57,438 nt of DNA. Origin: a virus. The notes under the pieces were generated by a model. The model worked only from the letters and a program-made list of their open reading frames with translations. It was not told where the DNA came from and ran no database searches. Shown here in pieces: positions 881-28,085 of this stretch. The stretch is taken from the IMG/VR virus record IMGVR_UViG_3300032356_000001. One strand, given 5' to 3'. Each line of letters begins with the position of its first letter. Position 1 is the first letter of the stretch. Both the position numbers and the translations under genes were made by a program.

Positions 881-927
881 CCTCTATTATACCACATCTC
901 AGCCTCTGTGATGGGGTATAATAGAGG
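881..927. promoter_or_regulatory. Divergent -10 promoter pair arranged as an imperfect inverted repeat (GCCTCTATTATACC / GGTATAATAGAGGGC)
   Basis: The minus-strand TATAAT (886-891) is 6 nt from ATG 879. The plus-strand TATAAT (917-922) is 7 nt from an ATG at 930. Confidence 0.6.
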
Positions 928-5606: not shown

Positions 5607-5614
5607 GGCATGGA

Positions 5615-5895: not shown

Positions 5896-5898
5896 GTG

Positions 5899-7325: not shown

Positions 7326-8215
7326 GTGTCAAGTATCGTGTTTGGAAGGTGCGTCGGGATGGTGTGTCCCAGCGGTACAGGGTCGCGCCGACACGCGAGC
7401 ATAACGATGCGGTCACCGCAGTCATGAGCGGCGACCTCGCCAAGGCGAGATCGCGCAAGAAGCAGGAACTTGCACGGCAATTCCTGCAAGTCCCGTCGGT
7501 GCAGGAGTCGGTCTATCGCTCGCTGGTGCGACAGTATGAGGAAACAAACTCGACGGATGCGAAGCCGATGTTGTTCCTGAAATACTACTTGTCGCATGGG
7601 CATCCAGAGGCAGAGTCGCTGCTCGTGCGATTGGCGACCGAACCCTCCAACCTACATGTACGAGCCTCAGCTGTCCTTACGATGACGCTCTCTACGAATC
7701 CGCGTGTCCCGCGCTTGCTTCGCGAGGTTGCCGACAAGGCGCCCAACGAATGGACGGCTCGCTTCGCCATCGGCAAATTGGCAAGCTACCTTTTCATCAC
7801 GATGCAAGACATGATCGGTAAAGGAATCACGCCTGCAAGGGAGGCGGTACTCGATGCGATGGAGGCGCTCGGCATTGCGCTGCAAGGTAAGTGGGGCAGT
7901 CTCGAAGGCGAGATAACCTTCATCCTCGCCGCGTTGGACTACGAGCGGTGGAAATTCGAGAAGGCGGCTCACGGGCAGATACCCACTCGCGTTGAAAAGA
8001 CGGTTATCGACGGGCTGATGTCGCTTCTATCGTCAGGAGACTTGTCCACTGAGGTGTTCGATCGAACGCTAATAGTCATCAAGGAATGGCGATCAGAGTA
8101 CGCGCTCTCCAAGCTCCGTTCCTACTTGAGCGGTTCACTTCCGCACGAGCGTCGAGCGAAGGTTCTCGTCGCTATACAAGAGATAGAACACCGATCGAAG
8201 CGCAAGTCGAGATGA
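7322..8215 (+). CDS. HEAT-repeat protein, paralog 1, with the shared N-terminal tag MSVKYRVWKVRRDGVSQRYRVAPT
   Basis: ATG overlaps the methylase stop (ATGA). GGTACAATT (7310-7315) is 6 nt upstream. Repeats read LVRLATEPSNLHVRASAV..NPRVPRLLREVADKAPNEWTARFAI. Confidence 0.7.
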   Translation: MSVKYRVWKVRRDGVSQRYRVAPTREHNDAVTAVMSGDLAKARSRKKQELARQFLQVPSVQESVYRSLVRQYEETNSTDAKPMLFLKYYLSHGHPEAESLLVRLATEPSNLHVRASAVLTMTLSTNPRVPRLLREVADKAPNEWTARFAIGKLASYLFITMQDMIGKGITPAREAVLDAMEALGIALQGKWGSLEGEITFILAALDYERWKFEKAAHGQIPTRVEKTVIDGLMSLLSSGDLSTEVFDRTLIVIKEWRSEYALSKLRSYLSGSLPHERRAKVLVAIQEIEHRSKRKSR

Positions 8216-8226
8216 ACGTTGCGACG

Positions 8227-9039
8227 ATGAGTGTCAAGTATCGTGTTTGGAAGGTGCGTCGAGACGGAGTGTCCCAGCGGTACAGGGTCGCGCCGACACG
8301 CGAGTACGGTAAGTCGGTCGAGTCGATTGTCGTCAAGCAACTTCAGCACGCTCTGGAGACGGGTCAGCCCCCAGAAATCTCGCCCGCGAGCAACGACGGG
8401 CTGTTCCGCGTGTATGTCAACGCACTGGAGCGGAAGCTCGAACTGCAAGGAGACGCCGAGGCATATCAATTGCTGACTCCTCTCGAACCTTACCTCGCTC
8501 GTAATTTGCCTGAAGCGCATCGATTGATTGTCCGATTGGCAACCGAAGCGCCCCATCGGACACTGCGAAGCATCGCGATGGAGGTGTGCAAGCGTTCTGT
8601 GTACGAGACGCCCTCGCTGCTCAGCGAAATCGCGATTCAGTCACCTGATAGGTGGGGCGTGGACAAGGCGTTGAGAAATTTGCGAGAATACATAGACAAC
8701 GGATTGCGTTACCTCTTCGACACGCTTCTTCAGGGGAGGAAATTGAATGTAGACAAGTCAAAGTTCGAGCGCAGTCTCGTCAAGGGAATCGATGTGCTGC
8801 TCGACGGCTTGAACGGATTCGACGGGAAGTGGCAGATACCCGAATTGACTCTTAGCGGGTCAGTCGTCTGGATGCGCGACAATATTGGCGACATCCTTGA
8901 GCTACCGCTGACACAGAAGGTTCGTCGCAAGATGGAGCGCACGATGCAGGCAATCGCCAAGCGCGACGACCTCGATGATCAGGTACGCCACGATGCAGTC
9001 GGAGTGGCGCGGAAACTGCGGGAACGGCACGAATTGTAA
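8227..9039 (+). CDS. Tagged paralog 2: same N-terminal 26 aa, strongly diverged helical-repeat body
   Basis: The first 78 nt differ from paralog 1 at only 3 positions, then nucleotide identity stops abruptly. No own -10 box was seen. Confidence 0.65.
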   Translation: MSVKYRVWKVRRDGVSQRYRVAPTREYGKSVESIVVKQLQHALETGQPPEISPASNDGLFRVYVNALERKLELQGDAEAYQLLTPLEPYLARNLPEAHRLIVRLATEAPHRTLRSIAMEVCKRSVYETPSLLSEIAIQSPDRWGVDKALRNLREYIDNGLRYLFDTLLQGRKLNVDKSKFERSLVKGIDVLLDGLNGFDGKWQIPELTLSGSVVWMRDNIGDILELPLTQKVRRKMERTMQAIAKRDDLDDQVRHDAVGVARKLRERHEL

Positions 9040-9063
9040 GCAGGTCGGTACAATTCAGCAGCG

Positions 9064-9966
9064 ATGAGTGTCAAGTATCGTGTTTGGAAGGTGCGTCGAG
9101 ACGGGGTGTCCCAGCGGTACAGGGTCGCGCCGACACGCGAGCATGACGATGCGGTTATCGCTGTTATGAGCGACCGTCTCGCCACGGCGGAATCGCGCGA
9201 GGCGCAGGAACTTGCACGGAAACTCCTGCAGAATCCGTCGGTGCAGGAATTGCTCTATCGCTCGCTGGTGCGACAGTATGAGGAAACGAAGTCGTCGGAT
9301 GATGGGCCGATGTCGTTCCTGCAGCACTACTTGTCGCGCGGGCATCCTGGCGCAGAGGCGCTCCTCGTGCGATTGGCAACCGAACCCTCCAACTGGCATT
9401 TGCAATACGCAGCTGTCATTACGATAGCGAAATCTATGAATCCGCGTGCGCCGCGTTTGTTTCGCGAGATAGCCGACAAGGCGACCGACGAATGGACGGC
9501 TCGCTCCGCTATCTTCAACTTGGCAATCAATCTTAAAGTCACGATGGAAAACCTAATCGGTAAAGGAATCACGCCGACAAGGGAGGAGATACTCGATGCG
9601 TTGGAGACGCTCGGACTTGCGATGCAAGGCAAGTGGTTCGAGCCCAAACCCAAAGGCGAGATAAACCCCATCCTTGCCGCGTTGAACTACAAGCGTTCCG
9701 AATTCGAGAAGGCGACTCACGGGCAGATACCCACTCGCATCGAAGAGACGCTTATCGACGGGCTGATGTCGATTCTCTTGACCGAAGACTTGTCCACTGA
9801 GGCGTTCGATAGAACGCTGGATGTCATCAAGGAGTGGGGGTCAGAGTACGCGCTCTCCAAGCTCCGTTCTCTGTTGAGCGGTTCACTTCCGCACGAGCGT
9901 CGAGCGAATGTTCTCGACGCTATACAAGAGATAGAACATCGGCTGAAGCGCAATAGTAGTCAGTGA
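9064..9966 (+). CDS. HEAT-repeat protein, paralog 3, with shared N-terminal tag
   Basis: GGTACAATT (9049-9054) lies upstream; high nucleotide similarity to paralogs 1, 4 and 5 along the whole gene. Confidence 0.7.
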   Translation: MSVKYRVWKVRRDGVSQRYRVAPTREHDDAVIAVMSDRLATAESREAQELARKLLQNPSVQELLYRSLVRQYEETKSSDDGPMSFLQHYLSRGHPGAEALLVRLATEPSNWHLQYAAVITIAKSMNPRAPRLFREIADKATDEWTARSAIFNLAINLKVTMENLIGKGITPTREEILDALETLGLAMQGKWFEPKPKGEINPILAALNYKRSEFEKATHGQIPTRIEETLIDGLMSILLTEDLSTEAFDRTLDVIKEWGSEYALSKLRSLLSGSLPHERRANVLDAIQEIEHRLKRNSSQ

Positions 9967-10012
9967 ACTGCGGGAGCGGTACGAATTGTAAGCACGACGG
10001 TACAATTGAGCG

Positions 10013-10945
10013 ATGAGTGTCAAGTACCGTGTTTGGAAGGTGCGTCGGGATGGTGTGTCCCAGCGGTACAGGGTCGCGCCGACACGCGAGCATGACAGTG
10101 CGGTCGTCGGCGTCGTAAGCGGCGACCTCGCCTCGGCGGAGTCGCACAAGGAGCAGGAACTTGCACGAAAGCTCCTGCAGAATCCGTCGGTGCAGGAGTC
10201 GGTCTACCGCTCGCTGGTGCGACAGCATGAGAAAACGATCTCGACGGATGTGGGGCCGATGTTGTTCCTGCAAAACTACTTAGCGCATGGGTCTCCAGAG
10301 GCAGAGGCGCTGCTCGTGCGATTGGCGACCGAACCCTCCGACAGGAATGTACGATTCGCAGCTATCTATGCGATAGCGACCTCTATGGATCCGCGTGCGC
10401 CGCGCTTGATTCGCGAGGTTGCCGATAAGGCGCCCGACGAATGGACGGCTCGCACCGCCATCACCTACTTGGCAACATACCTTGAAGTCACGATGGAAAA
10501 CCTGATCGGTGAAGGAATCACGCCGACAAGGGATGAGGTACTCGATGCGCTGGAGATGCTCGGACTCGCGCTGCAAGGCGAGTGGTTCAGACCCGAAGAC
10601 GAGATACGCTACATCCTTGCCGCGTTGAACTACAAGCGTTCCGAATTCGAGCAAGCGGCTCACGGACAGATACCCGACAGCGTTGAAAAGCAGGTTATCG
10701 ACGGACTGATGTCGGTTCTCCCGATGGGAAGATTGTCCACCGAGGGGTTCGAGCAAACGCTGAATGTCATCAAGGAGTGGGGGTCAGAGTACGCGATTCG
10801 CAAGCTCCGTTCCTACTTGAGAGGCGCCATTTCCTTATTGAGAGACGCCATTTCGCAACAGCGTCGACGGATGGTTCTCGACGCTATACACGATATAGAA
10901 CAACGGCTGAAGCGCAAGTCGGTACAATTCGGCGATGAGCGGTAG
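10013..10945 (+). CDS. HEAT-repeat protein, paralog 4, with shared N-terminal tag
   Basis: GGTACAATT (10001-10006) lies 6 nt upstream of the ATG. Confidence 0.7.
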   Translation: MSVKYRVWKVRRDGVSQRYRVAPTREHDSAVVGVVSGDLASAESHKEQELARKLLQNPSVQESVYRSLVRQHEKTISTDVGPMLFLQNYLAHGSPEAEALLVRLATEPSDRNVRFAAIYAIATSMDPRAPRLIREVADKAPDEWTARTAITYLATYLEVTMENLIGEGITPTRDEVLDALEMLGLALQGEWFRPEDEIRYILAALNYKRSEFEQAAHGQIPDSVEKQVIDGLMSVLPMGRLSTEGFEQTLNVIKEWGSEYAIRKLRSYLRGAISLLRDAISQQRRRMVLDAIHDIEQRLKRKSVQFGDER

Positions 10946-11828
10946 GTATCAGGTACGGAAGGTGCGTCGGGATGGTGTGTCCCAACGGTACTGGGTCGCG
11001 CCGACAAGCGAGCATGACGATGCGGTTATTGCTGTCGTAAGCGGCGACCTTGCCACGGCGGAATCGCGCAAGATGCAGGAACTTGCACAGCAACTTATGC
11101 AAGCTCCGTCAGTGCAGGAGTCGGTCTATCGCTTGCTAATGCGACAGTATGAGGAAATTGGCACTTCGTATGCAAAGCCGATGTCGTTCCTGCAGCACTA
11201 CTTGTCGCGTGGGTATCCAGAGGCAGAGGCGCTGCTCGTGCGATTGGCGACCGAACCCTCCAACAGGCATGTACGAAGAGCAGCTATCGAAACGATAGCG
11301 ACCTCGACGAATCCGCGTGTCCCGCGCTTGATTCGCGAGGTCATCGACAAGGCGCCCGACGAAGACACGACTCGCTACGCCATCTTCTACTTGGCAACCT
11401 ACCTCAACGACACGATGCAGAATCTGATGACTCAAGGAATCACGCTTGCAAGGGAGGCGGTACTCGATGCGTTGGAGACGCTCGGACTTGCGATGCAAGG
11501 CAAATGGTTCGAGCCCAAAGGCGAGATAAGCAACATCCTCAACGCGTTGAAATACAAGCGTTCCGAATTCGAGCGGGCGGCTCAAGGGCAGATACCCGAC
11601 AGCGTTGAAAAGCAGGTTATCGACGGGCTGATGTCGGTTCTCTCGTTAGGAGACTTGGCTAATGAGGCGTTCAAGCAAATGCTGGGTGTCGTCGAGAAGT
11701 GGGGCTCAGAGTACGCGCTCTCCAAGCTTCGCTCTCTATGGAGCGGTTTAAGTTCGAAACGGCGTCGAGATATGGTCTTCGACGCTATGAACGAGATAGA
11801 ACACCAGCTGAAGCGCAAGTCGGGATAA
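10935..11828 (+). CDS. HEAT-repeat protein, paralog 5, with tag variant MSGRYQVRKVRRDGVSQRYWVAPT
   Basis: GGTACAATT (10923-10928) lies 6 nt upstream; 11-nt overlap with paralog 4. Confidence 0.7.
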   Translation: MSGRYQVRKVRRDGVSQRYWVAPTSEHDDAVIAVVSGDLATAESRKMQELAQQLMQAPSVQESVYRLLMRQYEEIGTSYAKPMSFLQHYLSRGYPEAEALLVRLATEPSNRHVRRAAIETIATSTNPRVPRLIREVIDKAPDEDTTRYAIFYLATYLNDTMQNLMTQGITLAREAVLDALETLGLAMQGKWFEPKGEISNILNALKYKRSEFERAAQGQIPDSVEKQVIDGLMSVLSLGDLANEAFKQMLGVVEKWGSEYALSKLRSLWSGLSSKRRRDMVFDAMNEIEHQLKRKSG

Positions 11829-11852
11829 ACGCGAGAGCGAGTGAGTTATCGG

Positions 11853-11858
11853 TATAAT
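11853..11858 (+). promoter_or_regulatory. -10 box (cGGTATAATTg), leaderless class
   Basis: 8 nt upstream of ATG 11867. Confidence 0.55.
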
Positions 11859-11866
11859 TGCACGGC

Positions 11867-12532
11867 ATGTCGCGGCGGAACCAACAGACGACGGCGCGTG
11901 TTGTGAGTGACGAGCCTATCTGCGATTGTGCGGATGAGCATCGCCTCGATGTTCATCTCGAAAGCGCGGATGGGTATCCAGCGGTTGCGAACCTCTGTAC
12001 CCGATGCGGGCGGATACATCGCTTGCCCGCGAACGCGCGTGTGCGCGAGCGTCACGATGAAGACACAGAGACCGAGCGCATGTTGAATCGCGTCTTGTCA
12101 GCGGATCGCGCCAACGCCCATCGTCTGCAAGAGGAGATGCTCGAATTGTACGAGCGCATCGAGCGCGAGCGCGACGAAATCGAGCGACGCGTCGAGATGT
12201 TCAGGCGACGCTACCCGCAGCCGCCCGTGCAGTCCACGGCACATTACCGTGACGCGCTCGCACAGTACGAAGCGGACATCGAGCGACTCCGCGAACTGGA
12301 GATGGCGGAAGCGCACGCTAACGAAACGCTCGGTATGCTCGGCATGCAGGAAGACCCAGACCCTGAGCAGTTCGAGCGCGTTCGAGCAATCGCGGGTATG
12401 CCGAGCCTTGACGCTACGATTCCGTCAGAACCTGACGACGCCACGCCAGACGCTATCCCATCGGAAGCGGAAACGACAGATTCGGAAGCGACGGATGCGA
12501 CTGCCAATACTGACCGTAGGTATTCTCCGTGA
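11867..12532 (+). CDS. Hypothetical coiled-coil protein with an N-terminal Cys cluster (CDC...CTRC) and an acidic tail
   Basis: ORF 11858-12532 trimmed to the ATG; E/R-rich heptad-like region. Confidence 0.55.
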   Translation: MSRRNQQTTARVVSDEPICDCADEHRLDVHLESADGYPAVANLCTRCGRIHRLPANARVRERHDEDTETERMLNRVLSADRANAHRLQEEMLELYERIERERDEIERRVEMFRRRYPQPPVQSTAHYRDALAQYEADIERLRELEMAEAHANETLGMLGMQEDPDPEQFERVRAIAGMPSLDATIPSEPDDATPDAIPSEAETTDSEATDATANTDRRYSP

Positions 12533-14453
12533 TACCGATTCGCAGTGGCATCCCCTGTGTCTTCTGTCGGAACTGTGCGTCCCAGTCGCCATCCCAGCCG
12601 GTCTCCCCGTCCGTTAGCACCAGCACGCCGCTGTACCCGCCCTCTTCATCCCTCTGGCGCGGCACGATTAATTTCTCGACGGCTTGCACGAGACTACCCG
12701 TCACATCCGTGCTGCCCGATACCTGCAGCTGCTTCGCGATGTCTTTAGTTCGACTGCGCAGTTCCTCAGCGCCAACCTCAATCGCGCGTTCAGCGTGCAG
12801 GGATCCCGTGAACGGCACGAAGGTGAACCGCACGCCCTCATCCGCGCCAGAGTTCTCGGCGAGGTCTTGCATGTGCCCCAGAAACTTGCTGAGCATCGCG
12901 TCGTCTATGGAGCCCGACGCATCGACGAGTACCAGTATACGCATCGAGTCGCGTCTTATCCCGCGCGGGAGCAGCACATTCCCGACGGCGAGCTGTGACG
13001 GGTGTCTGCGCCCGATGGCGATGTTCGGACGCCATCGCCTTGCGAATCCCATCGACTCGCTCATAAACTCGCGCAGCACCTGTTGCCAATTCACGCGGCG
13101 CATGCCTCGAATCGCGCTGATGAGACGCTGCGCGTCTGCGCTGCCCTTGCCAGCCTTCCGACCCGTCTCCTCCGACGCCGCGTGCGACTCGCGTGCCGTG
13201 CGGTTCCGCTCACGCTCCATGTATTCCTCAGGCGTCATGCCCGATTCTGCCGCGCGACGCTCGACCGTGCGACGCACCAGCTCATGATTCTCATCCAGCA
13301 TGTCGCTCCCCAGCGGATTCTGGGATGCCTGCTTGCCTGTTGCCCCGCTCGACTGCGACTGCGATGACTGCTGCGTCTGACTCCCGCTTGACTGCGACTG
13401 CGACTGCGATTGCGACGACTGCTGCGACTGCTTCCCGCCCGACTGCGACTGCGACGACTGCTGCGACTGACTCCCGCTCGACTGCGACTGCGACGACTGC
13501 TGCGACTGCTTCCCGCTCGACTGCGATTGCGACGACTGCTGCGACTGCTTCCCGCTCGACTGCGACTGCGACGACTGCTGCGACTGCTTCCCGCTCGACT
13601 GCGACTGCGACGACTGCTGCGACTGCTTCCCGCTCGACTGCGACTGCGACGACTGCTGCGACTGTGCCTCTGCGATTTGGTTCCTCGCATGCGTGCGGTA
13701 GTTCGACTCCCACGGCAGGTAGGGATCGCAATCCTCAAGCTTGTGTATTGCCCAATCGAAGTTCGCTTCTGACGAGACAACACGCGCCTCGCGCATCGAC
13801 TTCAGCAGCCCCTCGATGAGCGTGTTGATTTCCAAGTCCGCTACATCGTTGAATACCGAGTGCGGACTCGCGCCTGCTCGTTCCAGCTCGCCGATAATAT
13901 CGCGATTGAGACGCTTAAAGTCATCGAATCGTGGGAAGTGGGTGAGCGCGAGGTGCAGCGCCTCGTGCAACAGCACCACCTGCACCATGTCGACGGTCGC
14001 CCGCACGCGGTCGGACTCGCTTATCTCCTGTCCCGTGCGTTTCTGGTGCTGTTCCGCCATGATTTTCGGTATCTCGCGCGTCACGAAGTCTGGCGAGATG
14101 TAGAGGTGTCCGAACGGGTCGACCGCCATCGTATCCAGTTCGTTCGTGTAGACAATCTTCTGGAACGGGAGCAAGCGTGACAGGGACGGGAACACCGAGC
14201 GCAGTCGTGTGAAGGCGTTCCCGACGATTTCCTGCGCTCGCGCCAGAGACTGCGAAGGCGATGCAGGCGCGGGTTCCGACGGCGTCCCAGACCCCGCGCG
14301 GGCATGCACGGCAGACTCAGGGAGTACCCAGTACCGCCGTTGGAACACCCCGTGCTGCCCGTGCACCATGTGCGGTTCGGGATGGAGCCTGCCCCCGTGC
14401 GACGGGTCGCTCAGGATGACCGAATCCCACCAAACCACGCGCGACTTGCTCAT
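12453..14453 (-). CDS. Zn-metallopeptidase-like (HExxH) + von Willebrand A domain protein (DUF2201-like) with the N-terminal shared tag and an SQ-rich repeat linker
   Basis: Motifs VLLHEALHLALTH, MIDAS VLVDASGSID and ...LVLTDGETGW. ATG 14453 is preceded by GGAGAGG and TGGTACAAT (14466-14471). Confidence 0.8.
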   Translation of the reverse strand: MSKSRVVWWDSVILSDPSHGGRLHPEPHMVHGQHGVFQRRYWVLPESAVHARAGSGTPSEPAPASPSQSLARAQEIVGNAFTRLRSVFPSLSRLLPFQKIVYTNELDTMAVDPFGHLYISPDFVTREIPKIMAEQHQKRTGQEISESDRVRATVDMVQVVLLHEALHLALTHFPRFDDFKRLNRDIIGELERAGASPHSVFNDVADLEINTLIEGLLKSMREARVVSSEANFDWAIHKLEDCDPYLPWESNYRTHARNQIAEAQSQQSSQSQSSGKQSQQSSQSQSSGKQSQQSSQSQSSGKQSQQSSQSQSSGKQSQQSSQSQSSGSQSQQSSQSQSGGKQSQQSSQSQSQSQSSGSQTQQSSQSQSSGATGKQASQNPLGSDMLDENHELVRRTVERRAAESGMTPEEYMERERNRTARESHAASEETGRKAGKGSADAQRLISAIRGMRRVNWQQVLREFMSESMGFARRWRPNIAIGRRHPSQLAVGNVLLPRGIRRDSMRILVLVDASGSIDDAMLSKFLGHMQDLAENSGADEGVRFTFVPFTGSLHAERAIEVGAEELRSRTKDIAKQLQVSGSTDVTGSLVQAVEKLIVPRQRDEEGGYSGVLVLTDGETGWDGDWDAQFRQKTQGMPLRIGITENTYGQYWQSHPSLPNLSFPLPMG
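13351..13664. repeat. About 8 tandem copies of a 39-bp unit (gactgcgactgcgacgactgctgcgactgcttcccgctc), in frame, encoding (SSGKQSQQSSQSQ)n
   Basis: Read directly; copies differ by a few substitutions and one 6-bp insertion. Confidence 0.9.
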
Positions 14454-17068
14454 CGCCTCTCCGCGATTGTACCATACGGCGCATCGGTCAGGTGACCGTG
14501 TGCGCTCAGCAGATGCATCGCGTGGAGCAGCTCCTCGCGATGCTCGGGCGAGAGATGTTCCCACACATTGTTGACCGTCTGCCAGTGCTGTTCTACCGTG
14601 TCTCGGATTCTGCCGCGTGCGCTCGCATGCAACGGCGCGACATTCACAGCGGGATGCGACAGCACCTGCGCCACATGCTCAGGCGCATGACCTGCCAGCC
14701 GACCGAGTTCCGCATGCTGCTTGCGACGCGCATCCTCATGGTAGGCGCGATACTCGTCGTGAATCTCCTCTGGGAGTATCTCCTGACCCGATTCTACATC
14801 GATGACGGGCGTATGGAGCATCGAGAGCAGTCCCATCCCTGCAGCCGCGCGATGCGCCTCGCGCGAAATCGCATGCACCGTCGATGCATCGCGGTTCTGT
14901 GCGAGAGTCTCCAGCAGACCGTCGAGACGGTTGAGACTGCGTTCCGTCTCCGTGTGCGTGTCGTGCAGGCGCTGTGCGACGATTTCAGGGTTGCCCGAAC
15001 CGAGTATTGCACGCACGCCCCGTCCCAGCGGCGAGCGCGAGTCGACCGCTTCAAGGTGCAGCGCGTGCGCTGCAGGCGCGCCGTGCTGACCCGCCAAGTG
15101 GAGCAGATGCTTCGAGCGCGTGAGGTCGACCGATGCGTGCGAGTCGAACCCTGGCATGTGCAGTTCGGATGTTCCGTCGGGATTCGTACTGACATGCAGC
15201 TTGTCGGTGTCGGTATCCAGATAGTGCAGCGGGAGCGAGAACTCGTAGGGTTGCTGCGACGGGGGCGTGTCGTCGCTGGATAGCACGCGAATCAAGTCGT
15301 CGACGGTCTCAATCGGCTGGCTCTTGAAGGTCGCGCGGGTATGCTTCGCGCCCGCCTCCTTCGCGCGGTCGGAGTGCGTGATGAACACTCCCTCATGCGT
15401 CGCGGCGTCGTGTACCCGCGTCTCGCGATGCACTGTCCGACCGTGATGCGCATCGCTCCCTGCAGCGTCGTCCATAATCGCTTCGACCGATTCCGCGCCT
15501 CGCGGCTTGAGCGCCGTCTGGATAATCTCGTGAATCTTCGGAATGTTCGGGCGTCCCACATTACATGCGAGGAACCGCTCCACCTCTGGCGAGTCCAAGT
15601 CGTATCCCAGCGCGAACAGCACGGACAGCTGGTCAGCGAGTATCATCACGCGTCGCGGCGACATATGCTTGCGGTCGGAATCCATCGAGGCGTAATCGGG
15701 CATATAGTTCGGGTCTGACTTGAAGTTATGCCACATCCCCGCGAGGTCGCCTGATAGCATCGCGTCGATGAGCGCACTCGCGATGCGGTAGTTCGTGCTT
15801 GCGCATTCCGCGCGGAGATCCGAGCGTAGCCCGCGCGACGACATCAGCTTCAGCAGCGTCATCAGATTCTGATGCTCGCGCATCACCTCGCGTGCGGAAC
15901 GACCCGTCTCCAGTTTCGCCCGCATCTGTTCCAGCTCGCCCGCCGCGCCCGCCAGCTCGGGCGACGACGCCTGACGCGACTGACGCGCCTCTTCCGCTTC
16001 CCGCTCCGCATCCTCGTCATAATCCAGAACGAACCGACGCAGGCGATCACGCGCACCTGTCGCTTCGCGCGACGACTCCTGCTCAAACACCGACTGAATC
16101 GCGCGTACATACTCGTCCTCTTCCGACGGCGTCGTCGCATAGTAGAGGAACCTGTCCGCGAACGGAACCAGCGAGGAGCGCATCTTGCCCATCTCGCCTT
16201 CCCAGTCCGCGCGGTTACCGAGCATCACGATGCGGAACGGAACGCCGAGCCGACGGTCAGCGACGATACCGTTCGTGATGAGCGACAGCATCGTCTGCAG
16301 GATCTGGGGCGACTTCGTCGCCTCGTCGAACACCAGCACGAGCGGTACGCCGCGCTGCTTGCAATACTGAATCTTGTGTTCCAAGTCCGCCGTGAACATG
16401 AACCGCACCATGCCCTCGTCGATGGCTTGTGCGCCCATCTGCTCTGTAATGTTGTAGACTGCCGATTGCACATTCAGGATATGGACGCGGAACGGCGCTG
16501 CGTCCTGTTCCGACATAGCGTCGCTCATGTTCATCATCGCTTCCCACAGCGTGGTCTTGCCCACGCCAGGAGCGGAGAGCATCATCACGGGGTGTCCGAC
16601 GGCGCTCCCGTTCTCGTGGATACGCACGGCAAGATGTGCGAGCATCATCTGGCGCTCCATCGGGTTCAGTTGTTCGATGGCGTTGCGCAGCGCCTCGCGT
16701 ACCTCTTCAGGGAGCTGTTCGACATCCAGCCCTGCGGGCGAGGCGCTGGGGGCGCCCGCGCCGTGCGACGGCGCGGGCGCTGGGTGAGGAGACACGGAAG
16801 GAGAAGGTGAGGATGATGGCGATGTAGAGGAAGGCTTCCGCTTGCGTGCTTCGAGCGTCTCGCCGCGCACCCAGAAGGTCTGCTGGAAGGTCGTGCCCTC
16901 GCGATGCACAGTCCGCTCCTCAGGATGTAGACCACGCGACATCGGGTCTTGATGCAGCCCCGAATGGTGCGGGATACTCGGATGGTACTCGTACCGCTCC
17001 GAGAACAGCACCGTGCGCCACCAGACGCGACGCCTGCGATTAATCCGATTCGATGTACCGATTCGCAT
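14450..17068 (-). CDS. Large AAA+ ATPase (MoxR/AAA_5-like core) with the N-terminal shared tag and a long C-terminal extension
   Basis: Walker A LSAPGVGKTT and Walker B LVLVFDEATK. Start chosen at ATG 17068 (GGAGCG SD); 17080 is also possible. Confidence 0.75.
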   Translation of the reverse strand: MRIGTSNRINRRRRVWWRTVLFSERYEYHPSIPHHSGLHQDPMSRGLHPEERTVHREGTTFQQTFWVRGETLEARKRKPSSTSPSSSPSPSVSPHPAPAPSHGAGAPSASPAGLDVEQLPEEVREALRNAIEQLNPMERQMMLAHLAVRIHENGSAVGHPVMMLSAPGVGKTTLWEAMMNMSDAMSEQDAAPFRVHILNVQSAVYNITEQMGAQAIDEGMVRFMFTADLEHKIQYCKQRGVPLVLVFDEATKSPQILQTMLSLITNGIVADRRLGVPFRIVMLGNRADWEGEMGKMRSSLVPFADRFLYYATTPSEEDEYVRAIQSVFEQESSREATGARDRLRRFVLDYDEDAEREAEEARQSRQASSPELAGAAGELEQMRAKLETGRSAREVMREHQNLMTLLKLMSSRGLRSDLRAECASTNYRIASALIDAMLSGDLAGMWHNFKSDPNYMPDYASMDSDRKHMSPRRVMILADQLSVLFALGYDLDSPEVERFLACNVGRPNIPKIHEIIQTALKPRGAESVEAIMDDAAGSDAHHGRTVHRETRVHDAATHEGVFITHSDRAKEAGAKHTRATFKSQPIETVDDLIRVLSSDDTPPSQQPYEFSLPLHYLDTDTDKLHVSTNPDGTSELHMPGFDSHASVDLTRSKHLLHLAGQHGAPAAHALHLEAVDSRSPLGRGVRAILGSGNPEIVAQRLHDTHTETERSLNRLDGLLETLAQNRDASTVHAISREAHRAAAGMGLLSMLHTPVIDVESGQEILPEEIHDEYRAYHEDARRKQHAELGRLAGHAPEHVAQVLSHPAVNVAPLHASARGRIRDTVEQHWQTVNNVWEHLSPEHREELLHAMHLLSAHGHLTDAPYGTIAERR

Positions 17069-17387
17069 GAGACGCTCCATGAGGAGTATACGCCGTCGAG
17101 ACCAGCGCATCGACTCGCGAGACCAAATCCGTGTCGCTTGGCGCGTCGCTGTTGCGCACCTCATCCGCAAGCACATCGATGAGACCGACCAGCACCATCC
17201 ATGGCGAAGTGTCGGTGTCGCCCTGATACGACTCGGCTAAGTCCAGCAGGTGCTGTAGCAGCTCGCGCGGATTCGCATCGCCCAGACGCGCCATGGCGCA
17301 TGCGACGCCGACATCACGGACACGCTCCAGCAGCGCGTCGATGTCCTCAACCTGCAGAATCTCCTGCACAATCGGCGGTTGTCTCAT
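17040..17387 (-). CDS. Acidic hypothetical protein (115 aa) immediately downstream of the sigma factor; anti-sigma or adaptor role is speculative
   Basis: ATGA start/stop overlap with the sigma gene; D/E-rich. Confidence 0.55.
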   Translation of the reverse strand: MRQPPIVQEILQVEDIDALLERVRDVGVACAMARLGDANPRELLQHLLDLAESYQGDTDTSPWMVLVGLIDVLADEVRNSDAPSDTDLVSRVDALVSTAYTPHGASHANRYIESD

Positions 17388-17875
17388 TGAAGCCTCCGAC
17401 GAATCGATTCGATGACTGTCTCCAGATACCTGCTGCTCATGCCCAGCTCGCGTCTGATATCCGAGCGCGATTGACCCGACACGAGCCGTTCCGCCACCTC
17501 ACGCTCCTCTGGCGGCATCACTGCCAGAGTCGCCGTCCATTCCATAGCATCATCCGTCGCCTCAGCGTGCATCGCACACATGATATCCCATTCGTTGTAG
17601 GCAATCTCCTTCCGCTTGCGCAGGTAATCCCGACCCGTGTTCGCAATCGCGCGGCGGATATACCGCTCTGCGCTCTCTAATCGGATACGCGGCGCGTTCA
17701 CCCACAGTTTCACTGCGACCTCGTTCGCCAGCGACTCCGCCTCGTCGGACTCGATATGGTACGCCTTGAGATACCATGCGAACGCGCAGTCCCGCACACG
17801 CTCCGCAAACAGGTCGTACTCGCAGGTCTCATGACCGCGCTCCAAAGCGACGAGCATCTCCCGCCATCGCGTCAT
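17384..17875 (-). CDS. Sigma-70 family (ECF-like, regions 2 and 4) sigma factor
   Basis: Region 2-like YIRRAIANTGRDYLRKRK. Region 4-like MPPEEREVAERLVSGQSRSDIRRELGMSSRYLETVIESIRRRL. Confidence 0.7.
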   Translation of the reverse strand: MTRWREMLVALERGHETCEYDLFAERVRDCAFAWYLKAYHIESDEAESLANEVAVKLWVNAPRIRLESAERYIRRAIANTGRDYLRKRKEIAYNEWDIMCAMHAEATDDAMEWTATLAVMPPEEREVAERLVSGQSRSDIRRELGMSSRYLETVIESIRRRLQ

Positions 17876-17876
17876 C

Positions 17877-18305
17877 TCACCACCCGCTCCCCGTGCGACG
17901 CACACTCCGAATGCTCCGCACGGGCGTCGGCTGCGACTGCGGCGCAAAGACTGGGAGCATCCACTCGACCGACTCGCCCAGCACATGCGCCCAGCCCCGT
18001 TCCAGTCGCTGCAACTCGTCTTCCGCCTGCTGATACAGCTGCTGTGCGTAGGGGTTCATAGACGCGCCGACGTTGGTTATCGCCAGCGTTCGCGCCTCCA
18101 CCAGCGCCGCCGCCAGCTGCATCGTTATCGTCGGTATCGGCGGTTTCGCAGGCGCGTCCGTCACCATCATGCGCGGGTACAACCGCACCAAGCGCGAACG
18201 GATGTACGATTCCGCAGCATCGATAGCCGCCTGCAACACGGAATCGTCTATCGGCTCCAGATTCCGCACATAGAACCGCACTTGCGCTGGCGTCACCCAC
18301 GACAT
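17877..18305 (-). CDS. Head-tail connector/adaptor protein (Mu gp36/DUF1320-like)
   Basis: MSWVTPAQVRFYV..IDDSVLQAAIDAAESYIRSRLVRLYP pattern; sits directly downstream of the MCP. Confidence 0.55.
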   Translation of the reverse strand: MSWVTPAQVRFYVRNLEPIDDSVLQAAIDAAESYIRSRLVRLYPRMMVTDAPAKPPIPTITMQLAAALVEARTLAITNVGASMNPYAQQLYQQAEDELQRLERGWAHVLGESVEWMLPVFAPQSQPTPVRSIRSVRRTGSGW

Positions 18306-18368
18306 GACTAAGTTCTCCCGTAATGTGTGGATGCGGGTGCGCTCCGTATCAGAGCGCACCCGCTATGC

Positions 18369-19319
18369 TTATGCTGCCGACATCACATTCTGGATTAGCA
18401 CCCCGCATGCGCGGGCGATGACCTTGTGCGTGTAAATCCAGTCCACCTCGATCCATGTGCCGCTGTCGCGTTCGACATCGATGTAGGTGCGCACATTCCG
18501 CTGACGCGCCTCGAAGGTCGCCCCGTAGGTCAGACGACGCAGACCTGGCTTATCGACATAGCCCACCCAGACATCGCGTCCCCATATCTCATCCATCCGA
18601 CTGGTCACCGTGATTTCCTGCGGGTCGAGACTGCGCGAGCCGAACGGGTCTGTCGGGAGCTGAAGCGCCGCCGCTTCCAGCACTTCCAGACCCCACAGGT
18701 TCTGTGGGAGCCCGCTCTGGGTCAAGTCCGTCACATAGCGTCGCTCTTCCTTGATTTCCTCGATTGCCAGCATCCGCCGCGCAATCGTCGAGGGAATCAC
18801 GACCACATTCGGACGACGCCCCGTAGCCGTGAAGATGAAGTTGCTCGCGTTAATCAGGTCGACCTTCGGCGACGCGACGGTATAGTTGTCCCACGCCGTC
18901 GACGGCGTGAACGCATGCAGGTTGTTCGCAGGGTCGCGCAGGGTTCGCGCCGCGCGAATCTCGCGGTTGAGCATCAACAGGTCGGTCAGATGCTCCGTCA
19001 TATCGACTTCCAAGTCGATGGGCCCCGACACATTCTCACGCTGGCGCGGTGTGATAATCTCGCGCAGTGAGTGCTGCTCGCACATGTACCAGTCTGCCTT
19101 CCACCCGAACGACGCCTGCTTCGCCGTGTCGCCGTCCTGCCGCGTGTCATCGACATACCGAAACGCGGAGAGGTCGTACACATAGAACAGGTCGCTCTCC
19201 TTGTTCACAGGCATCGACGGGAAGATGCGATCCGCGATGTACCCTTCGGGACGGTACTTAATGCTGACATTCGTCAGCACCTCATCGTAGTGAACTCGTT
19301 GCGCTTGTGCGACTGCCAT
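18369..19319 (-). CDS. Major capsid protein (lambda gpE-like family)
   Basis: 316 aa; SIKYRPEGYIADRIFPSMPVNKESDLFYVYD N-terminal signature; position after the protease/scaffold and a decoration-like gene. Confidence 0.8.
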   Translation of the reverse strand: MAVAQAQRVHYDEVLTNVSIKYRPEGYIADRIFPSMPVNKESDLFYVYDLSAFRYVDDTRQDGDTAKQASFGWKADWYMCEQHSLREIITPRQRENVSGPIDLEVDMTEHLTDLLMLNREIRAARTLRDPANNLHAFTPSTAWDNYTVASPKVDLINASNFIFTATGRRPNVVVIPSTIARRMLAIEEIKEERRYVTDLTQSGLPQNLWGLEVLEAAALQLPTDPFGSRSLDPQEITVTSRMDEIWGRDVWVGYVDKPGLRRLTYGATFEARQRNVRTYIDVERDSGTWIEVDWIYTHKVIARACGVLIQNVMSAA

Positions 19320-19332
19320 CTTCTTAGCCTCC

Positions 19333-19995
19333 TTATTGCACGAATACGGTGCTTGTCAGCATGCGGACAGGGATGACCTGCGGGTTCGTCGCGGCGTCGG
19401 CGGTTGTCGAACGCATCGCGACGCCGATGGGGAAGAACCACTGCTGCTGGTTCGTACCCGTGCGGTTAAACGCTGGGGCATTGTTCGCAAGCGCACGCAC
19501 GGGGGTAATCAGGAAGTTGTAGTCGCGTCCGAACTCTGGGTGGATAATCGGACGGAGTTCGGGGATGCGACTGAACGGCGTCTGCGACGATGAGCGTACC
19601 AGCAGACGGTTGCCTGCCGTCGTGTCGTTGCCTGCCAGCGCCGCGAACAGCAGGTCGCCCGCGTTTACCTGCGCGTTCACGATGAGCGGAGTAATCCCGT
19701 CCAGTGCGACCATGACCTCCTTCCCGTCCAGTGCGTACTGGAGCGTGACGCCGATGATGGGACGCACCAGCGCCCACTGCGGCGTAGCGCCCTGCGCGAC
19801 ATTTGCCCAGTGCTGCGTCGGGTTCCCAGCGGAGACAACCAGTCCCGCTTCGGGGTTGACGCCAGGCTCAGGAATCGAGCCGTGTCCCGCGTCCCACAGG
19901 ATGACCGCTGTGTACCGCGCAATCGCTGCGCGGCGCGTGCGATCGAAGTCGTAGTACCGAAAGGTCGTCGTGAAATGGGTCTTATATGCTTGCAT
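19333..19995 (-). CDS. Putative head decoration or accessory capsid protein
   Basis: Position between the scaffold/protease and the MCP only; no motif recognised. Confidence 0.35.
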   Translation of the reverse strand: MQAYKTHFTTTFRYYDFDRTRRAAIARYTAVILWDAGHGSIPEPGVNPEAGLVVSAGNPTQHWANVAQGATPQWALVRPIIGVTLQYALDGKEVMVALDGITPLIVNAQVNAGDLLFAALAGNDTTAGNRLLVRSSSQTPFSRIPELRPIIHPEFGRDYNFLITPVRALANNAPAFNRTGTNQQQWFFPIGVAMRSTTADAATNPQVIPVRMLTSTVFVQ

Positions 19996-20007
19996 TTATG
20001 TCACCCC

Positions 20008-21000
20008 CTAAATCTCGCGTGCGGCGCGTTTAATCGCCTCACCGAAGGCGATGCCCTCGCTCGCGGCGACGCGCTCAGCGCGTGCGATGAGTTCGCGCGT
20101 GGTGCGTTCCTCGCCCGTGCGTAGCGTGTACCGTAGCGGCTGCTCCGACAGGTTCACGCGCGGGCGGTTCGGAACCATCTGCGCGACCTCTTCGAGTATC
20201 GCGAGTACGAAGTCCTCAACGGGAACTCGCGCGTCCGACGACGCGTTCTCGCTTAGACGCACAATCCGCGACTCGGGCATCTCCGAGCGCACATCCGACA
20301 GCGACACTGCACGACCGCGCAGCGAGTCGAAGATGTACCGCGCGAGACGCAGCATTGACGGCGGAACGGCATGCTCGTACTCCGACAGGAGCAAGTCCCT
20401 GTCCGATTCCCACTGACGCTCCTCAAGCTCCGACAGACGCACTCGCAAATCGCGAACCTCGTCCTGTGGTACGGTTCCTTGCGTATTCATCGAGTTGTAG
20501 CCTCCCTGATGTGTTGCAGTTCGAGCGCGTTCCGATAGCGTGACCACTTGTGCGGGATCCATGCGCTTGATATACGGGCGGTTCGTCAGAGCGACCGCGC
20601 GGAGCGCGGTGACCTCACGGCGCGTCTCAGGATCTCGCCCGCGCACCGTCAGCTCCGCACTGGCAAACCGCAGACGACCATCCCGCACGCGGTCGAGAAC
20701 CTCGTCGGCGGTCGGTCGAATCGTCGCGTACAGCGATTCGCCTTGACGCTCCAGCGCCGTTACCCATCCGACCGCGTCGGTCGAATCGTCCATGTGGTTC
20801 AGATTGACGGGCAGCTCGTACCCGAACACCCCGTCGCGGAAGTTCCGAACGATTTCGTCCAGCTCGCGTTCCGTGACGACGAGGCGCCCCTCAGGCGCCA
20901 TCTCGTGCAGCCATTCGCCCGTGCGAAGCACCTCCACGCGAATCGCAGGGCGCGACCCGCGCGTTACCGTCTCCGCATCCGACAGTGTCACGACTATCAT
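20008..21000 (-). CDS. Mu gpI-like prohead protease/scaffold protein
   Basis: ELPVNLNHMDDSTDAVGWVTALERQGESLYATIRPT...LRFASAEL matches the Mu-like prophage I pattern. GGGAG SD precedes ATG 21000. Confidence 0.75.
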   Translation of the reverse strand: MIVVTLSDAETVTRGSRPAIRVEVLRTGEWLHEMAPEGRLVVTERELDEIVRNFRDGVFGYELPVNLNHMDDSTDAVGWVTALERQGESLYATIRPTADEVLDRVRDGRLRFASAELTVRGRDPETRREVTALRAVALTNRPYIKRMDPAQVVTLSERARTATHQGGYNSMNTQGTVPQDEVRDLRVRLSELEERQWESDRDLLLSEYEHAVPPSMLRLARYIFDSLRGRAVSLSDVRSEMPESRIVRLSENASSDARVPVEDFVLAILEEVAQMVPNRPRVNLSEQPLRYTLRTGEERTTRELIARAERVAASEGIAFGEAIKRAAREI

Positions 21001-21069
21001 TCTGCGCTCCCTAAACGAAGCAGGCGGTGCGCTCGCATGATGCAAGCGCACCGCCTGCTACATCGACCA

Positions 21070-21075
21070 ATTATA
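21070..21075 (-). promoter_or_regulatory. -10 box (cCGTATAATTg) in the gap upstream of the protease/scaffold gene; about 65-nt leader, not leaderless
   Basis: Minus strand reads gccgTATAATtggtcg. Confidence 0.45.
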
Positions 21076-21087
21076 CGGCGGAATTCG

Positions 21088-21465
21088 CTATTTCGCATCG
21101 AGCAGCAGCTCGTCGACTGCCTTGTTCCGCAGCTCCGCACGCGATGGTAAGTCGGGATAATAGTTCCAGCTGACGGGAATACCGTCCTTGACCGCGACTC
21201 GGATGAACCCGCGCTGAACCGAGCGTATCAGGTGGACGAGTCGCTCCTCATTGGGATGGAGTGCGACATCCGCCTCAGGCTCCTGCAGTTCGAACGGCTC
21301 CACGCAGCGCGAGTCGCCCTTCGTGGGATCGATGCGACACTCAATCGCGCGTTCCCCCACCAGATGCGACGGCTCGCGTTCCGAGACATACAGCGCGTCT
21401 ATATGACCGTACCCGATAATCCGACAGAGACGGATGACCCGCTGCTCCGCGACCGAGAGTATCAC
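21088..21465 (-). CDS. Hypothetical protein (125 aa)
   Basis: ORF in an operon-like tight array. Confidence 0.5.
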   Translation of the reverse strand: MILSVAEQRVIRLCRIIGYGHIDALYVSEREPSHLVGERAIECRIDPTKGDSRCVEPFELQEPEADVALHPNEERLVHLIRSVQRGFIRVAVKDGIPVSWNYYPDLPSRAELRNKAVDELLLDAK

Positions 21466-21941
21466 TATCCATCACCTCGCGTGCCGCCGCGCACGATGCG
21501 CGTCACCATCACCTCGCACGACCACCCATGCAACGGATGCTCCTGTATGTAGACGGGCGTCATCGTGACCTGAGGCGTCCATGTATCCGATGTGTAAAAC
21601 TCCGACGCATGCATACGGAACCGATGCGGATGCTGATGCACATAGTCCAGCCAGAGGTCGGCGTACCACTCCTGCTGCAGGATGCTCTCGCGCGGGTCAG
21701 GCGAGTAGACTGCCCCGACGATGCTATACACATGACGCTGCTCGAACAGTTCAGGGAGCGCCAGCGAGAACAGCGAGGACTGCAGCTTGCCCACCATCAC
21801 GATGGGGAACCTGTCGAACGGCACTTCCGACGGATACCATTCGTACACCGTCGGGCGCGCGAGCCCGAACGCCTCGCAGTAGCTCGCGTACTCCATGAGC
21901 CGTTCCATGATCCACTGCCGCATGGGCGCTATCGGGGTCAT
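21465..21941 (-). CDS. Hypothetical protein (158 aa)
   Basis: ORF coupled to its neighbours by start/stop overlaps. Confidence 0.5.
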   Translation of the reverse strand: MTPIAPMRQWIMERLMEYASYCEAFGLARPTVYEWYPSEVPFDRFPIVMVGKLQSSLFSLALPELFEQRHVYSIVGAVYSPDPRESILQQEWYADLWLDYVHQHPHRFRMHASEFYTSDTWTPQVTMTPVYIQEHPLHGWSCEVMVTRIVRGGTRGDG

Positions 21942-28079: not shown

Positions 28080-28085
28080 ATTATA
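28080..28085 (-). promoter_or_regulatory. -10 box (gGCGTATAATTg), leaderless class; overlaps the terL stop codon
   Basis: Minus strand reads ggcgTATAATtgagcgagATG. Confidence 0.55.

Follow-up and report, generated by a model that had tools for sequence, protein, structure and literature searches.

The virus record IMGVR_UViG_3300032356_000001, a stretch of 57,438 nt that was analysed in full and is called the window here, carries four tightly packed genes that close a long minus-strand array, behind the capsid and head–tail adaptor genes (Table 1). They encode a putative sigma factor, an acidic protein, a AAA+ ATPase, and a protein that combines a zincin-like HExxH domain with a von Willebrand factor A (VWA) domain bearing a metal-ion-dependent adhesion site (MIDAS). 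The initial annotation described them as coupled or overlapping genes appended to the head-morphogenesis operon, and this arrangement holds: they end an operon for a protease, the major capsid protein (MCP) and an adaptor, and the successive junctions are a 1-nt gap, an ATGA overlap, a 29-nt overlap and a further ATGA overlap. In this DNA of 62% GC, a codon-usage score prefers the minus-strand frames of the four genes over the many open reading frames (ORFs) of the plus strand. The order sigma–acidic–AAA+–VWA, followed by convergent genes for HEAT-repeat proteins, is kept in two relatives, L001 (a 52.5-kb contig with 50–77% protein identity) and L003, and the 29-nt overlap between the acidic and AAA+ genes is identical in both. 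None of the four genes matches the connector, Neck1, tail-completion or tail-terminator families, and the two products that were modelled, the sigma factor and the AAA+ protein, have models that match sigma and AAA+ folds.

The AAA+ gene product was first described as an 872-aa protein of MoxR/AAA_5-like affinity with a long extension, a description that stands. Its catalytic motifs (Walker A, Walker B, the sensor-1 Asn and a FADRF motif) are intact and are kept in homologues P0001, P0002 and P0005, and it aligns with a second ATPase of the window, an AAA_5/AAA_3 protein, at a BLASTP E value of 1e-7 and an hhalign probability of 91.6%. A weaker match links it to PHROG 1297 (8e-4). No family in Pfam or NCBIfam is matched, AAA_3 and AAA_5 included, and PDB sequence searches with the single sequence or with a profile return only noise. 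When the AlphaFold2 (AF2) model, a weak one, is searched with Foldseek, the best match is RavA (E=1.8e-3, TM score 0.28), a MoxR protein that pairs with the VWA protein ViaA; lower matches are mostly AAA+/STAND-type ATPases. The C-terminal third of the protein (aa 520–872; 14450–15508, minus strand) contains 35 His in 353 residues (10%), few of which are invariant (H644, H654, H657, H739, H752 and H849); metal binding by this region is possible.

The 666-aa partner was likewise correctly recognized as a protein with an intact HExxH motif and a VWA/MIDAS domain, and both motifs are conserved across its family. Within HEALHLALTH (aa 163–172), E164 and H172 are invariant and H163 and H167 are at least 90% conserved among distant homologues; in the MIDAS, D511, S513, S515, T582 and D615 are invariant in the family alignment. 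The protein matches PHROG 1314 (E=8e-25) and, below the gathering score of 26.4, Pfam DUF2201 (2.6e-4, 21.6 bits), while DUF2201_N is not matched at all. Relatives at 77–97% identity, 534–666 aa long, carry precomputed PF13203, PF09967 and PF00092 assignments. Against the PDB, the family profile finds ITIH4 (4e-8) and the integrin alpha-M I-domain (4e-6), and the single sequence only noise. Between the two domains lies a linker encoded by a 39-nt tandem repeat; the repeat length differs between relatives, and Q/S/G-rich linkers occupy the same position across the family.

The feature that ties these two proteins together is an N-terminal tag. The tag of the VWA protein, VVWWDSVILS...LHPEPHMVHGQHGVFQRRYWV, is related to that of the AAA+ protein (Table 1); both are basic, each precedes a Ser/Pro-rich linker, and they share the motif LHPExRxVxRxGxxFxQxxWV. 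A hidden Markov model (HMM) built only from proteins outside the window (P0048, P0051 and a protein of contig L017, all described below) matches the AAA+ tag at 6e-11 to 1.5e-9, whereas no Pfam family is matched by the isolated tags. Only five homologues of the AAA+ protein were found among 5.8 billion proteins, and three of these (P0003–P0005) lie outside the phage clade and lack the tag, which is also missing from the second, canonical AAA+/VWA pair of the window.

A short form of the tag is probably also carried by the products of five tandem plus-strand genes that converge on the module. These HEAT-repeat paralogues (Pfam HEAT_2 at 1.4e-7 and 1.9e-6) all begin with MSVKYRVWKVRRDGVSQRYRV, and this start keeps 100% identity even in a copy whose remaining sequence shares only 30%; the L001 HEAT proteins retain the core RRDGVxQRYWV, with the remainder diverged. 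Run against a six-frame translation of the window, an HMM of the motif recovers exactly seven proteins: the products of the AAA+ and VWA genes and all five HEAT paralogues. It also recovers L001 proteins that were not among its seeds. HMMs made from the AAA+/VWA tags alone, or from the HEAT tags alone, recover the other class weakly, with the right rank and position, at E values of 0.07–0.8. From these HMM results, the sharing of the tag between the AAA+ and VWA proteins is solid, and the HEAT proteins are probably tagged as well; they are a probable third component of the system.

Outside the clade, a profile search of 1.84 billion proteins with the tag found two proteins. P0048 (E=2e-7) contains the tag motif together with a HipA-like kinase domain, twice, and P0051 (E=9e-5) consists of an InPase domain, an ADP-ribosyltransferase domain and a weak Mu F match; its PHROG matches are to minor-head, virion-structural and DarB-like proteins, with PHROG 1917 ('virion structural protein') covering the motif itself. 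A DNA pattern scan adds a third carrier, a protein of at least 740 aa from the 86.9-kb viral contig L017, with the motif near its N-terminus. For this protein an identity as an ADP-ribosyltransferase was considered and dropped, there being no Pfam or PHROG match. Four further candidates from the tag search were dismissed as unrelated: P0049, P0050 and P0053, which have LHPE...GRNYF repeats, and P0054, which has surface repeats. In the polyvalent proteins P0051 and P0048, the motif, in the form xRxVxRxGxTFxQTxWV, stands between or before InPase, ADP-ribosyltransferase and kinase-like domains, whereas in the window the tag heads separate single-function proteins and does not link domains within one polypeptide. 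The motif is apparently not described in the paper by Iyer et al. 2017 (PMC5512222).

The main rival reading of the tag is as an encapsidation signal by which the AAA+, VWA and HEAT proteins would be packaged into procapsids and injected, along with the DNA, as a host-takeover or anti-defence kit. Injected proteins have parallels in T4 Alt and the T4 internal proteins, the P1 Dar proteins and the N4 virion RNA polymerase. The two genes for the ATPase and its partner end the head operon and stand behind the same type of promoter as the capsid genes, the basic tags are attached through flexible linkers, the motif occurs in the virion-type P0051, where a virion PHROG spans the motif region, and in the large L017 protein, and packaging has been predicted for such polyvalent proteins (PMC5512222). 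Yet a ring-forming 96-kDa ATPase with a 73-kDa adaptor would be unusual cargo, P0048 lacks a virion signature, the other head proteins of the window bear no tag, no tag-binding partner is evident, and the HEAT genes have promoter-like elements of their own outside the head operon. On this evidence we consider packaging rather unlikely.

The acidic protein, confirmed at 115 aa with a pI of 4.28, matches nothing in Pfam, PHROG, NCBIfam or PADLOC. It is nevertheless the best conserved of the four in L001 (77% identity, compared with 66% for the sigma factor, 60% for the AAA+ protein and 50% for the VWA protein), and it has homologues encoded directly 5' of AAA+ homologues at three further loci: L014 (111 aa, 64% identity, hhalign 2e-39), L015 (56% identity) and L002, a Fimbriimonadales chromosome (99 aa, 47% identity, hhalign 5e-24). 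By tblastn, none of the three loci shows similarity to the sigma factor, the VWA protein or the HEAT proteins; the adjacency of the AAA+ gene to its VWA/MIDAS partner, kept in L001 and L003, is missing from L002, L014 and L015. Because the acidic and AAA+ genes occur together at three loci without sigma or VWA genes, they form a separable two-gene core, in which the acidic protein is predicted to be a dedicated partner of the AAA+ protein and not of the sigma factor. In L014, an ORF ending in ...SIRRRLR was considered as a decayed sigma gene and rejected, since tblastn finds no sigma similarity there or in L015 or L002. The AAA+ homologues of L014 and L015, P0003 and P0004, have degenerate Walker A (AHSVSKMT and APSEDRTT) and Walker B (VFDKAT and VFDNST) motifs and retain the acidic partner and the long C-terminal extension despite this; they are probably ATPase-dead derivatives.

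This linkage bears on the usual arrangement of extracytoplasmic function (ECF) sigma factors, under which the sigma factor and the acidic protein would be a sigma/anti-sigma pair and the AAA+ and VWA genes unrelated cargo. The acidic gene does directly follow the sigma gene with an ATGA overlap, and many of the best fold matches of the sigma model are sigma/anti-sigma co-structures. However, the acidic homologues stand beside AAA+ homologues at loci in which tblastn finds no sigma gene, it is the overlap of the acidic with the AAA+ gene that is conserved, and the acidic protein has neither an anti-sigma domain match nor an HxxxCxxC motif. The occurrence of the pair in sigma-less loci makes a sigma/anti-sigma relationship highly improbable.

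The acidic and AAA+ genes of L002 belong to an island that also holds a mad3-like ATPase (PADLOC 1e-40) and a PIN toxin module. Part of miaA is repeated there: between 7624 and 9480 of this locus (Fimbriimonadales metagenome-assembled genome, JAOAAO010000003.1), its 5' end, comprising the first ~20 codons (ERALVILGPTATGKTA...), occurs twice, about 900 nt apart. The two copies flank the PIN toxin module, beside the acidic–AAA+ pair and the mad3-like ATPase, and the duplication looks like an integration scar or part of a defence island.

The window encodes a second AAA+/VWA pair of canonical form. Its ATPase (352 aa) matches PHROG 1297 at 9e-56 and both AAA_5 and AAA_3 above the gathering score, with midasin as the best PDB sequence match, and its partner (536 aa) matches PHROG 1314 at 9e-41 and the Pfam families DUF2201_N and DUF2201 above the gathering score. 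The AAA+ and VWA proteins of the module are about 25% identical to this pair and, since the genome already holds it, are its diverged paralogue. The phage relatives of the canonical pair are N4-like viruses, and the annotation of phage Pollock names its members N4 gp24-like ATPase and gp25-like metallopeptidase. AAA+/VWA pairs are therefore already known in phages, where PHROG 1297 and PHROG 1314 recur together, and it is the rebuilt form and the location of the present pair that are new. Like N4 gp24/gp25 of the Schitoviridae, it consists of an adjacent AAA+ protein and a protein with a zincin-like domain, a Q/S-rich linker and a VWA/MIDAS domain; unlike the N4-type pair, its ATPase is 2.5 times longer, with an N-terminal tag, a Ser/Pro linker and a 540-aa C-terminal extension, and there is an acidic partner gene. 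Within the window, the canonical pair lies among DNA-metabolism genes and the paralogous pair in the head operon, and the canonical VWA protein has lost the HExxH motif (RREVERLIRRH) and kept the MIDAS, whereas the paralogue retains both. To our knowledge, no N4 gp24/gp25-like AAA+/VWA pair of any phage has an assigned function.

Turning to the first gene of the module, its assignment to the sigma-70 family is upheld by profile and ECF fold matches, though below curated cut-offs. Pfam Sigma70_r2 is matched at E=4.6e-4 (20.4 bits; cut-off 24) over aa 72–126 of a 200-aa ORF, and TIGR02937 (sigma70-ECF) at E=5.9e-6 (26.0 bits; cut-off 42.9), with aa 35–163 (129 of the 163 residues) aligned to profile positions 17–162 of 165. 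TIGR02983 and TIGR02985 match at E=1–2e-7 and PHROG 1740 at E=8.6e-7; there is no separate match to Pfam Sigma70_r4. The protein misses all the curated cut-offs, yet several independent sigma models match it end to end, and given the sub-threshold TIGR02937 and Sigma70_r2 scores we treat it as a divergent relative of ECF sigmas and do not call it a member. An AF2 model built from six sequences shows two helical domains with a mean predicted local distance difference test (pLDDT) score of 86.7. In Foldseek searches of the PDB, the top 17 matches are all ECF sigmas (SigH, AlgU, CnrH, RpoE, SigW and SigK among them), with probabilities of 0.8–1.0 and per-domain TM scores of 0.58–0.68. The N-terminal domain superposes on region 2 of sigmaE (TM 0.58–0.64, root-mean-square deviation 2.6–3.2) and the C-terminal domain on sigma4 of SigD (TM 0.67, deviation 1.9), and in BFVD the best fold matches are phage ECF sigmas. 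By contrast, a single-sequence search of the PDB gives only noise, and tblastn detects no similarity to any phage sigma in GenBank phages. With a Sigma2-like domain and a sigma4-like helix-turn-helix in 163 aa, and without regions 1.1 or 3, the product is accepted here, from profiles and predicted fold, as a divergent ECF-like (group 4) sigma-70 family protein. Its nearest analogues are the small two-domain, ECF-related sigmas phiEco32 gp36 and those of Cronobacter phage GAP52 and Agrobacterium phage Atu_ph04. In contrast to gp36, it is encoded in a late head operon and not in an early/middle region, and no gp79-like partner was found.

Three classes of promoter-like motif occur in the window. 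The most frequent, GTATAATT, has 12 copies over both strands against 0.16 expected; at 10 of the 12 an ATG follows 5–7 nt downstream, and no conserved -35 element was found upstream. Divergent, back-to-back pairs occur at 5614/5629 and 44337/44357. The ATG stands so close behind the motif as to suggest leaderless mRNAs, for which the copies look like promoters. A variant, GGTACAATT, lies at 7309, 9048, 10000 and 10922 (+), with an ATG 5–8 nt later, and precedes four of the five HEAT genes; the corresponding copy at about 8210 is degenerate, and the L001 HEAT homologues lack the element and have GAGG-type leaders instead. A further class, TGTGGTATAATA, has four sites; the extended -10 type sequence gatgTGgGTATAATA occurs in four copies with common flanks (Table 1) and may represent an early class distinct from GTATAATT. 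A search for ECF-type -35/-10 promoters found none, the consensus scan yielding fewer promoter-like sites than shuffled sequences.

It was initially suggested that the phage sigma factor itself reads the -35-less, leaderless GTATAATT promoters. The excess of the motif, the short distance to the ATG and the missing -35 element would fit, and there is a precedent in phiEco32 gp36, an ECF-like phage sigma. Its promoters share a single conserved -10-proximal element (AATGTA, with its centre at -11.5), although, according to its structure, gp36 needs contacts to the -35 region as well (PMC12276001). On the other side, TATAAT is a perfect -10 element for a primary sigma, a GTATAATT element (21069–21076) is the only promoter seen before the sigma gene itself, a separate TGTGGTATAATA class exists, and GTATAATT precedes DNA-metabolism genes (ParB and an SNF2-like gene) as well as head genes and so marks more than one temporal class. 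We regard the suggestion as possible but doubtful and, because GTATAATT stands before the sigma gene itself and is found in front of DNA-metabolism genes as well as head genes, favour the host primary sigma as its reader.

No terminator-like site on the coding (minus) strand and no exact GTATAATT copy were found between 21068 and 12453, so that co-transcription from the element at 21069–21076 is the simplest reading: the protease, 220-aa, MCP, adaptor, sigma, acidic, AAA+ and VWA genes would share a single minus-strand transcript. A near-variant of the promoter motif, GTACAATC, lies at 14465–14472, 11 nt 5' of the VWA ATG, and Rfam matches no RNA family over 7000–21500. The module had been placed where neck and tail-completion genes are expected; those genes are not displaced by it, however, and are found elsewhere in the window. 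Since the Neck1/tail-completion gene and the tail-tube-like gene are far apart and on opposite strands (Table 1), the order of the morphogenesis genes is unusual.

Placed behind the MCP and adaptor genes, the module would be co-expressed with them late, and MoxR–VWA pairs are established assembly or maturation chaperones of large complexes (CbbQO, NorQD and CoxDE), so that the AAA+/VWA pair might be a morphogenetic chaperone for head or tail assembly. Against this, acidic and AAA+ homologues occur in a bacterial chromosome where their neighbours are a mad3-like ATPase and a PIN toxin module and virion genes are absent from the vicinity. A capsid chaperone would not be expected to be linked to five HEAT paralogues that are diversifying, and phages with related MCPs (RcapMu and Vibrio phages) are not matched by the AAA+ protein in tblastn against phage records. 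A chaperone role in morphogenesis therefore seems very unlikely to us.

Several other genes of the window are of note. Between the terminase and portal genes, the usual place of MuF-type or polyvalent virion proteins, lies a gene for a 1055-aa protein (24560–27727, minus) with an SNF2/DEAD helicase core at aa 390–1027 and an unassigned 390-aa N-terminus. The phage also has genes of its own for a sliding clamp of DnaN type and for three or more DNA methyltransferase-like proteins (1044–2174, 2206–3477 and 6531–7325 on the plus strand; 42398–43420 on the minus strand). A plus-strand gene at 11858–12532 begins at a GTATAATT element; its 224-aa product has a CxC...CxxC motif, a middle part that resembles a coiled coil, and an acidic tail. 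The gene converges on the VWA gene and shares 80 nt with its 3' end, and because this overlap (80–86 nt) is kept in L001 and L003, antisense interplay is possible.

Table 1. Coordinates of the module, its protein features and the surrounding genes and motifs in the window
Feature	Coordinates	Strand	Remarks
Sigma gene	17875->17384	minus	163 aa; ATG 1 nt past the adaptor stop (17877-17879)
Acidic protein gene	17387->17040	minus	115 aa, pI 4.28; ATGA overlap with the sigma stop
AAA+ gene	17068->14450	minus	872 aa; GGAG 6 nt 5' of its ATG
AAA+ layout			Tag at aa 1-70, then a Ser/Pro linker (aa 70-115), the core (aa ~125-330) and a long helical C-terminal extension (aa 330-872)
AAA+ N-terminal tag	16859..17068	minus	Basic, pI 11.3; RVWWRTVLFS...LHPEERTVHREGTTFQQTFWV
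AAA+ Walker A	16550-16573	minus	APGVGKTT
AAA+ Walker B	16316-16336	minus	LVFDEAT
AAA+ sensor-1 Asn	16214-16225	minus	MLGN
AAA+ FADRF motif	16148-16162	minus	
VWA gene	14453->12453	minus	666 aa; ATGA overlap on the AAA+ stop
VWA protein layout		minus	N-terminal tag aa 1-45, HExxHxxxxH (13938-13967), Ser/Gln linker, VWA/MIDAS
39-nt tandem repeat	13344..13664	minus	7.9 copies, Tandem Repeats Finder score 485; encodes the (SQSQSSGKQSQQS)n linker
VWA protein MIDAS segments	12909-12923, 12705-12719, 12603-12617	minus	
Five tandem HEAT-repeat paralogues	7322-8215, 8227-9039, 9064-9966, 10013-10945, 10935-11828	plus	Convergent on the module
Tail-tube-like gene	35997-36929	minus	Phage_tube_2; upstream in the array
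Two large ORFs, then ParB-like gene		minus	Between the tail-tube-like gene and TerL in array order
Large terminase subunit (TerL)	28081-29385	minus	Array member before the SNF2-helicase-like gene
Portal	23082-24563	minus	Array member
Mu-like protease	20008-21051	minus	Array member
220-aa protein	19333-19995		Between protease and MCP; weak head-scaffolding PHROG match
MCP	18369-19319	minus	PHROG 1005 at 3e-48
Adaptor-like protein (weak)	17877-18359	minus	160 aa; directly before the sigma gene
Neck1/tail-completion gene	5896-6534	plus	phrog_26, 1.6e-22
Canonical AAA+/VWA pair	51014-53679	minus	ATPase 52621-53679; DUF2201_N/DUF2201 protein 51014-52624
GTATAATT 8-mers	3484, 5614, 5629, 11852, 21069, 28079, 30692, 37285, 37645, 37959, 44337, 44357	both	
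gatgTGgGTATAATA class	885-892(-), 916-923(+), 50360-50367(-), 54426-54433(+)	both	Extended -10 type; four copies with common flanks

The module is conserved in a small clade of uncultured phages. A scan of viral contigs found ten IMG/VR fragments with the module order, only at 89–97% identity, and a scan of genome contigs with the AAA+ alignment gave no confirmed relatives. In GenBank phages, megablast of 12453–19400 found no close relatives, and tblastn of the AAA+, acidic and sigma proteins returned nothing or one marginal match. The initial remark that no characterised phage is known to couple such a pair with a sigma factor in a virion-gene operon is borne out, as none was found, either characterised or in GenBank. 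Nor was an earlier description of the tag or of the acidic partner found. The sole named cellular homologue found, that of the Fimbriimonadales genome, points weakly to an Armatimonadota host.

Taken together, we propose that the four genes form a late composite accessory module in which a tag assembles the AAA+ and VWA proteins, and probably the HEAT proteins, into a remodelling complex, with the sigma factor acting separately and none of the products being part of the virion structure. Its core unit would be the acidic protein and the MoxR-like AAA+ protein, a core that also stands alone in bacteria; the zincin-like/VWA adaptor of N4 gp25 type would be the third unit, and the phage AAA+ and VWA proteins would each have gained a basic, hairpin-like N-terminal tag on a flexible Ser/Pro linker. 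By analogy with RavA–ViaA, CbbQ–CbbO and Rea1/midasin, the AAA+ ring would supply ATP-driven force and the VWA/MIDAS protein would grip the target. Through the tag, the ATPase and the adaptor would come together with interchangeable HEAT scaffolds, in a single complex or at a single site, and this assembly would remodel or strip some protein complex, of the host or of the phage, at a late stage of infection. The sigma factor, in a separate function, would bind the host RNA polymerase core and redirect it to another promoter set. The comparisons establish how the genes are arranged, which domains they encode, that the pair is a paralogue of the canonical one, that the acidic and AAA+ genes are linked, that the AAA+ and VWA proteins have the tag in common and that the clade keeps the module. 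We infer that the genes are co-transcribed and that the products assemble into a complex, and likewise the part of the HEAT proteins, the target, and the promoters of the sigma factor.

We consider this proposal evenly balanced between right and wrong, and several points count against it. AF2 predicts no fold for the AAA+ tag (pLDDT below 35), and the model of the AAA+ protein as a whole is weak (mean pLDDT 63.7; core 45–80, with gaps). The link between the HEAT and the AAA+/VWA tags comes down to a core of ~12 residues for which the reciprocal HMMs are not significant. Curated family thresholds are passed by none of the sigma factor, the AAA+ protein and the VWA protein itself. The occurrence of the tag motif in polyvalent, virion-type proteins fits a packaging signal equally well, the promoter scans of the window found no candidate class specific to the phage sigma factor, and no target of the remodelling complex was identified.

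In a bolder reading, the ~25-residue basic motif LHPExRxVxRxGxTFxQTxWV could be a portable phage docking or targeting signal that in this clade marks the AAA+ motor, the MIDAS adaptor and the diversifying HEAT scaffolds, either for assembly into a single machine or for capsid loading and injection. The module would then be a phage-borne counterpart of the bacterial MoxR–VWA ternary conflict systems, directed against host defences. We think this reading unlikely, but if it were true, polyvalent virion proteins would be further users of the signal. The clade in addition offers a natural experiment, with a canonical copy whose HExxH is dead and a rebuilt late-operon copy with intact motifs and an acidic partner. 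The shared tag points to the five HEAT paralogues as candidate clients or adaptors, and the divergent ECF-like sigma factor in a head operon adds a case in which to study how transcription is rewired late, in phages whose host lineage has received little study.

Among known systems, the pair resembles RavA–ViaA, CbbQ–CbbO, NorQ–NorD and Rea1/midasin in coupling a AAA+ motor to a MIDAS-bearing adaptor. It departs from the MoxR–VWA chaperones in that its AAA+ protein matches neither AAA_3 nor AAA_5 and carries an extension without a solved relative. In the Rea1 system, the MIDAS engages repeat-scaffold substrates (Ytm1 and Rsa4) by a small domain at their N-terminus, and the tagged HEAT proteins resemble these substrates in layout, although the tag is not a ubiquitin-like domain. 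An acidic residue in the turn of the tag (RRDG/HREG) was considered as a MIDAS ligand and set aside: the L001 AAA+ protein has HRGHTT and P0051 has TRGG at this position, so the residue is not conserved and the role is unsupported.

The initial annotation had also invoked MoxR–VWA conflict systems. The ternary systems of this kind require a third component, which may be VMAP, iSTAND, an FtsH-type ATPase or a beta-propeller fused to the VWA domain (PMC7159879). None of these was detected at the module: Pfam finds only HEAT_2, and in PADLOC 2.0 the sigma, acidic, AAA+ and VWA proteins match no model, with a single marginal match for one HEAT paralogue (E=0.007). Lacking the required component, the module falls outside the definition of the ternary systems, and this part of the initial reading was not sustained. 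In conflict systems, HEAT/TPR repeat scaffolds and short shared adaptor domains (EADs) couple the components (Kaur, Burroughs, Iyer, Aravind 2020, PMC7159879), and the likeness to the present module consists in a MoxR and VWA core, further components and repeat scaffolds, with the shared tag analogous to EADs in logic only. In the phage protein, the VWA domain is C-terminal to a zincin-like domain, with no effector domains detected, whereas in conflict systems it is N-terminal to effectors; and the present system is encoded by a phage, whereas theirs are chromosomal, in multicellular bacteria.

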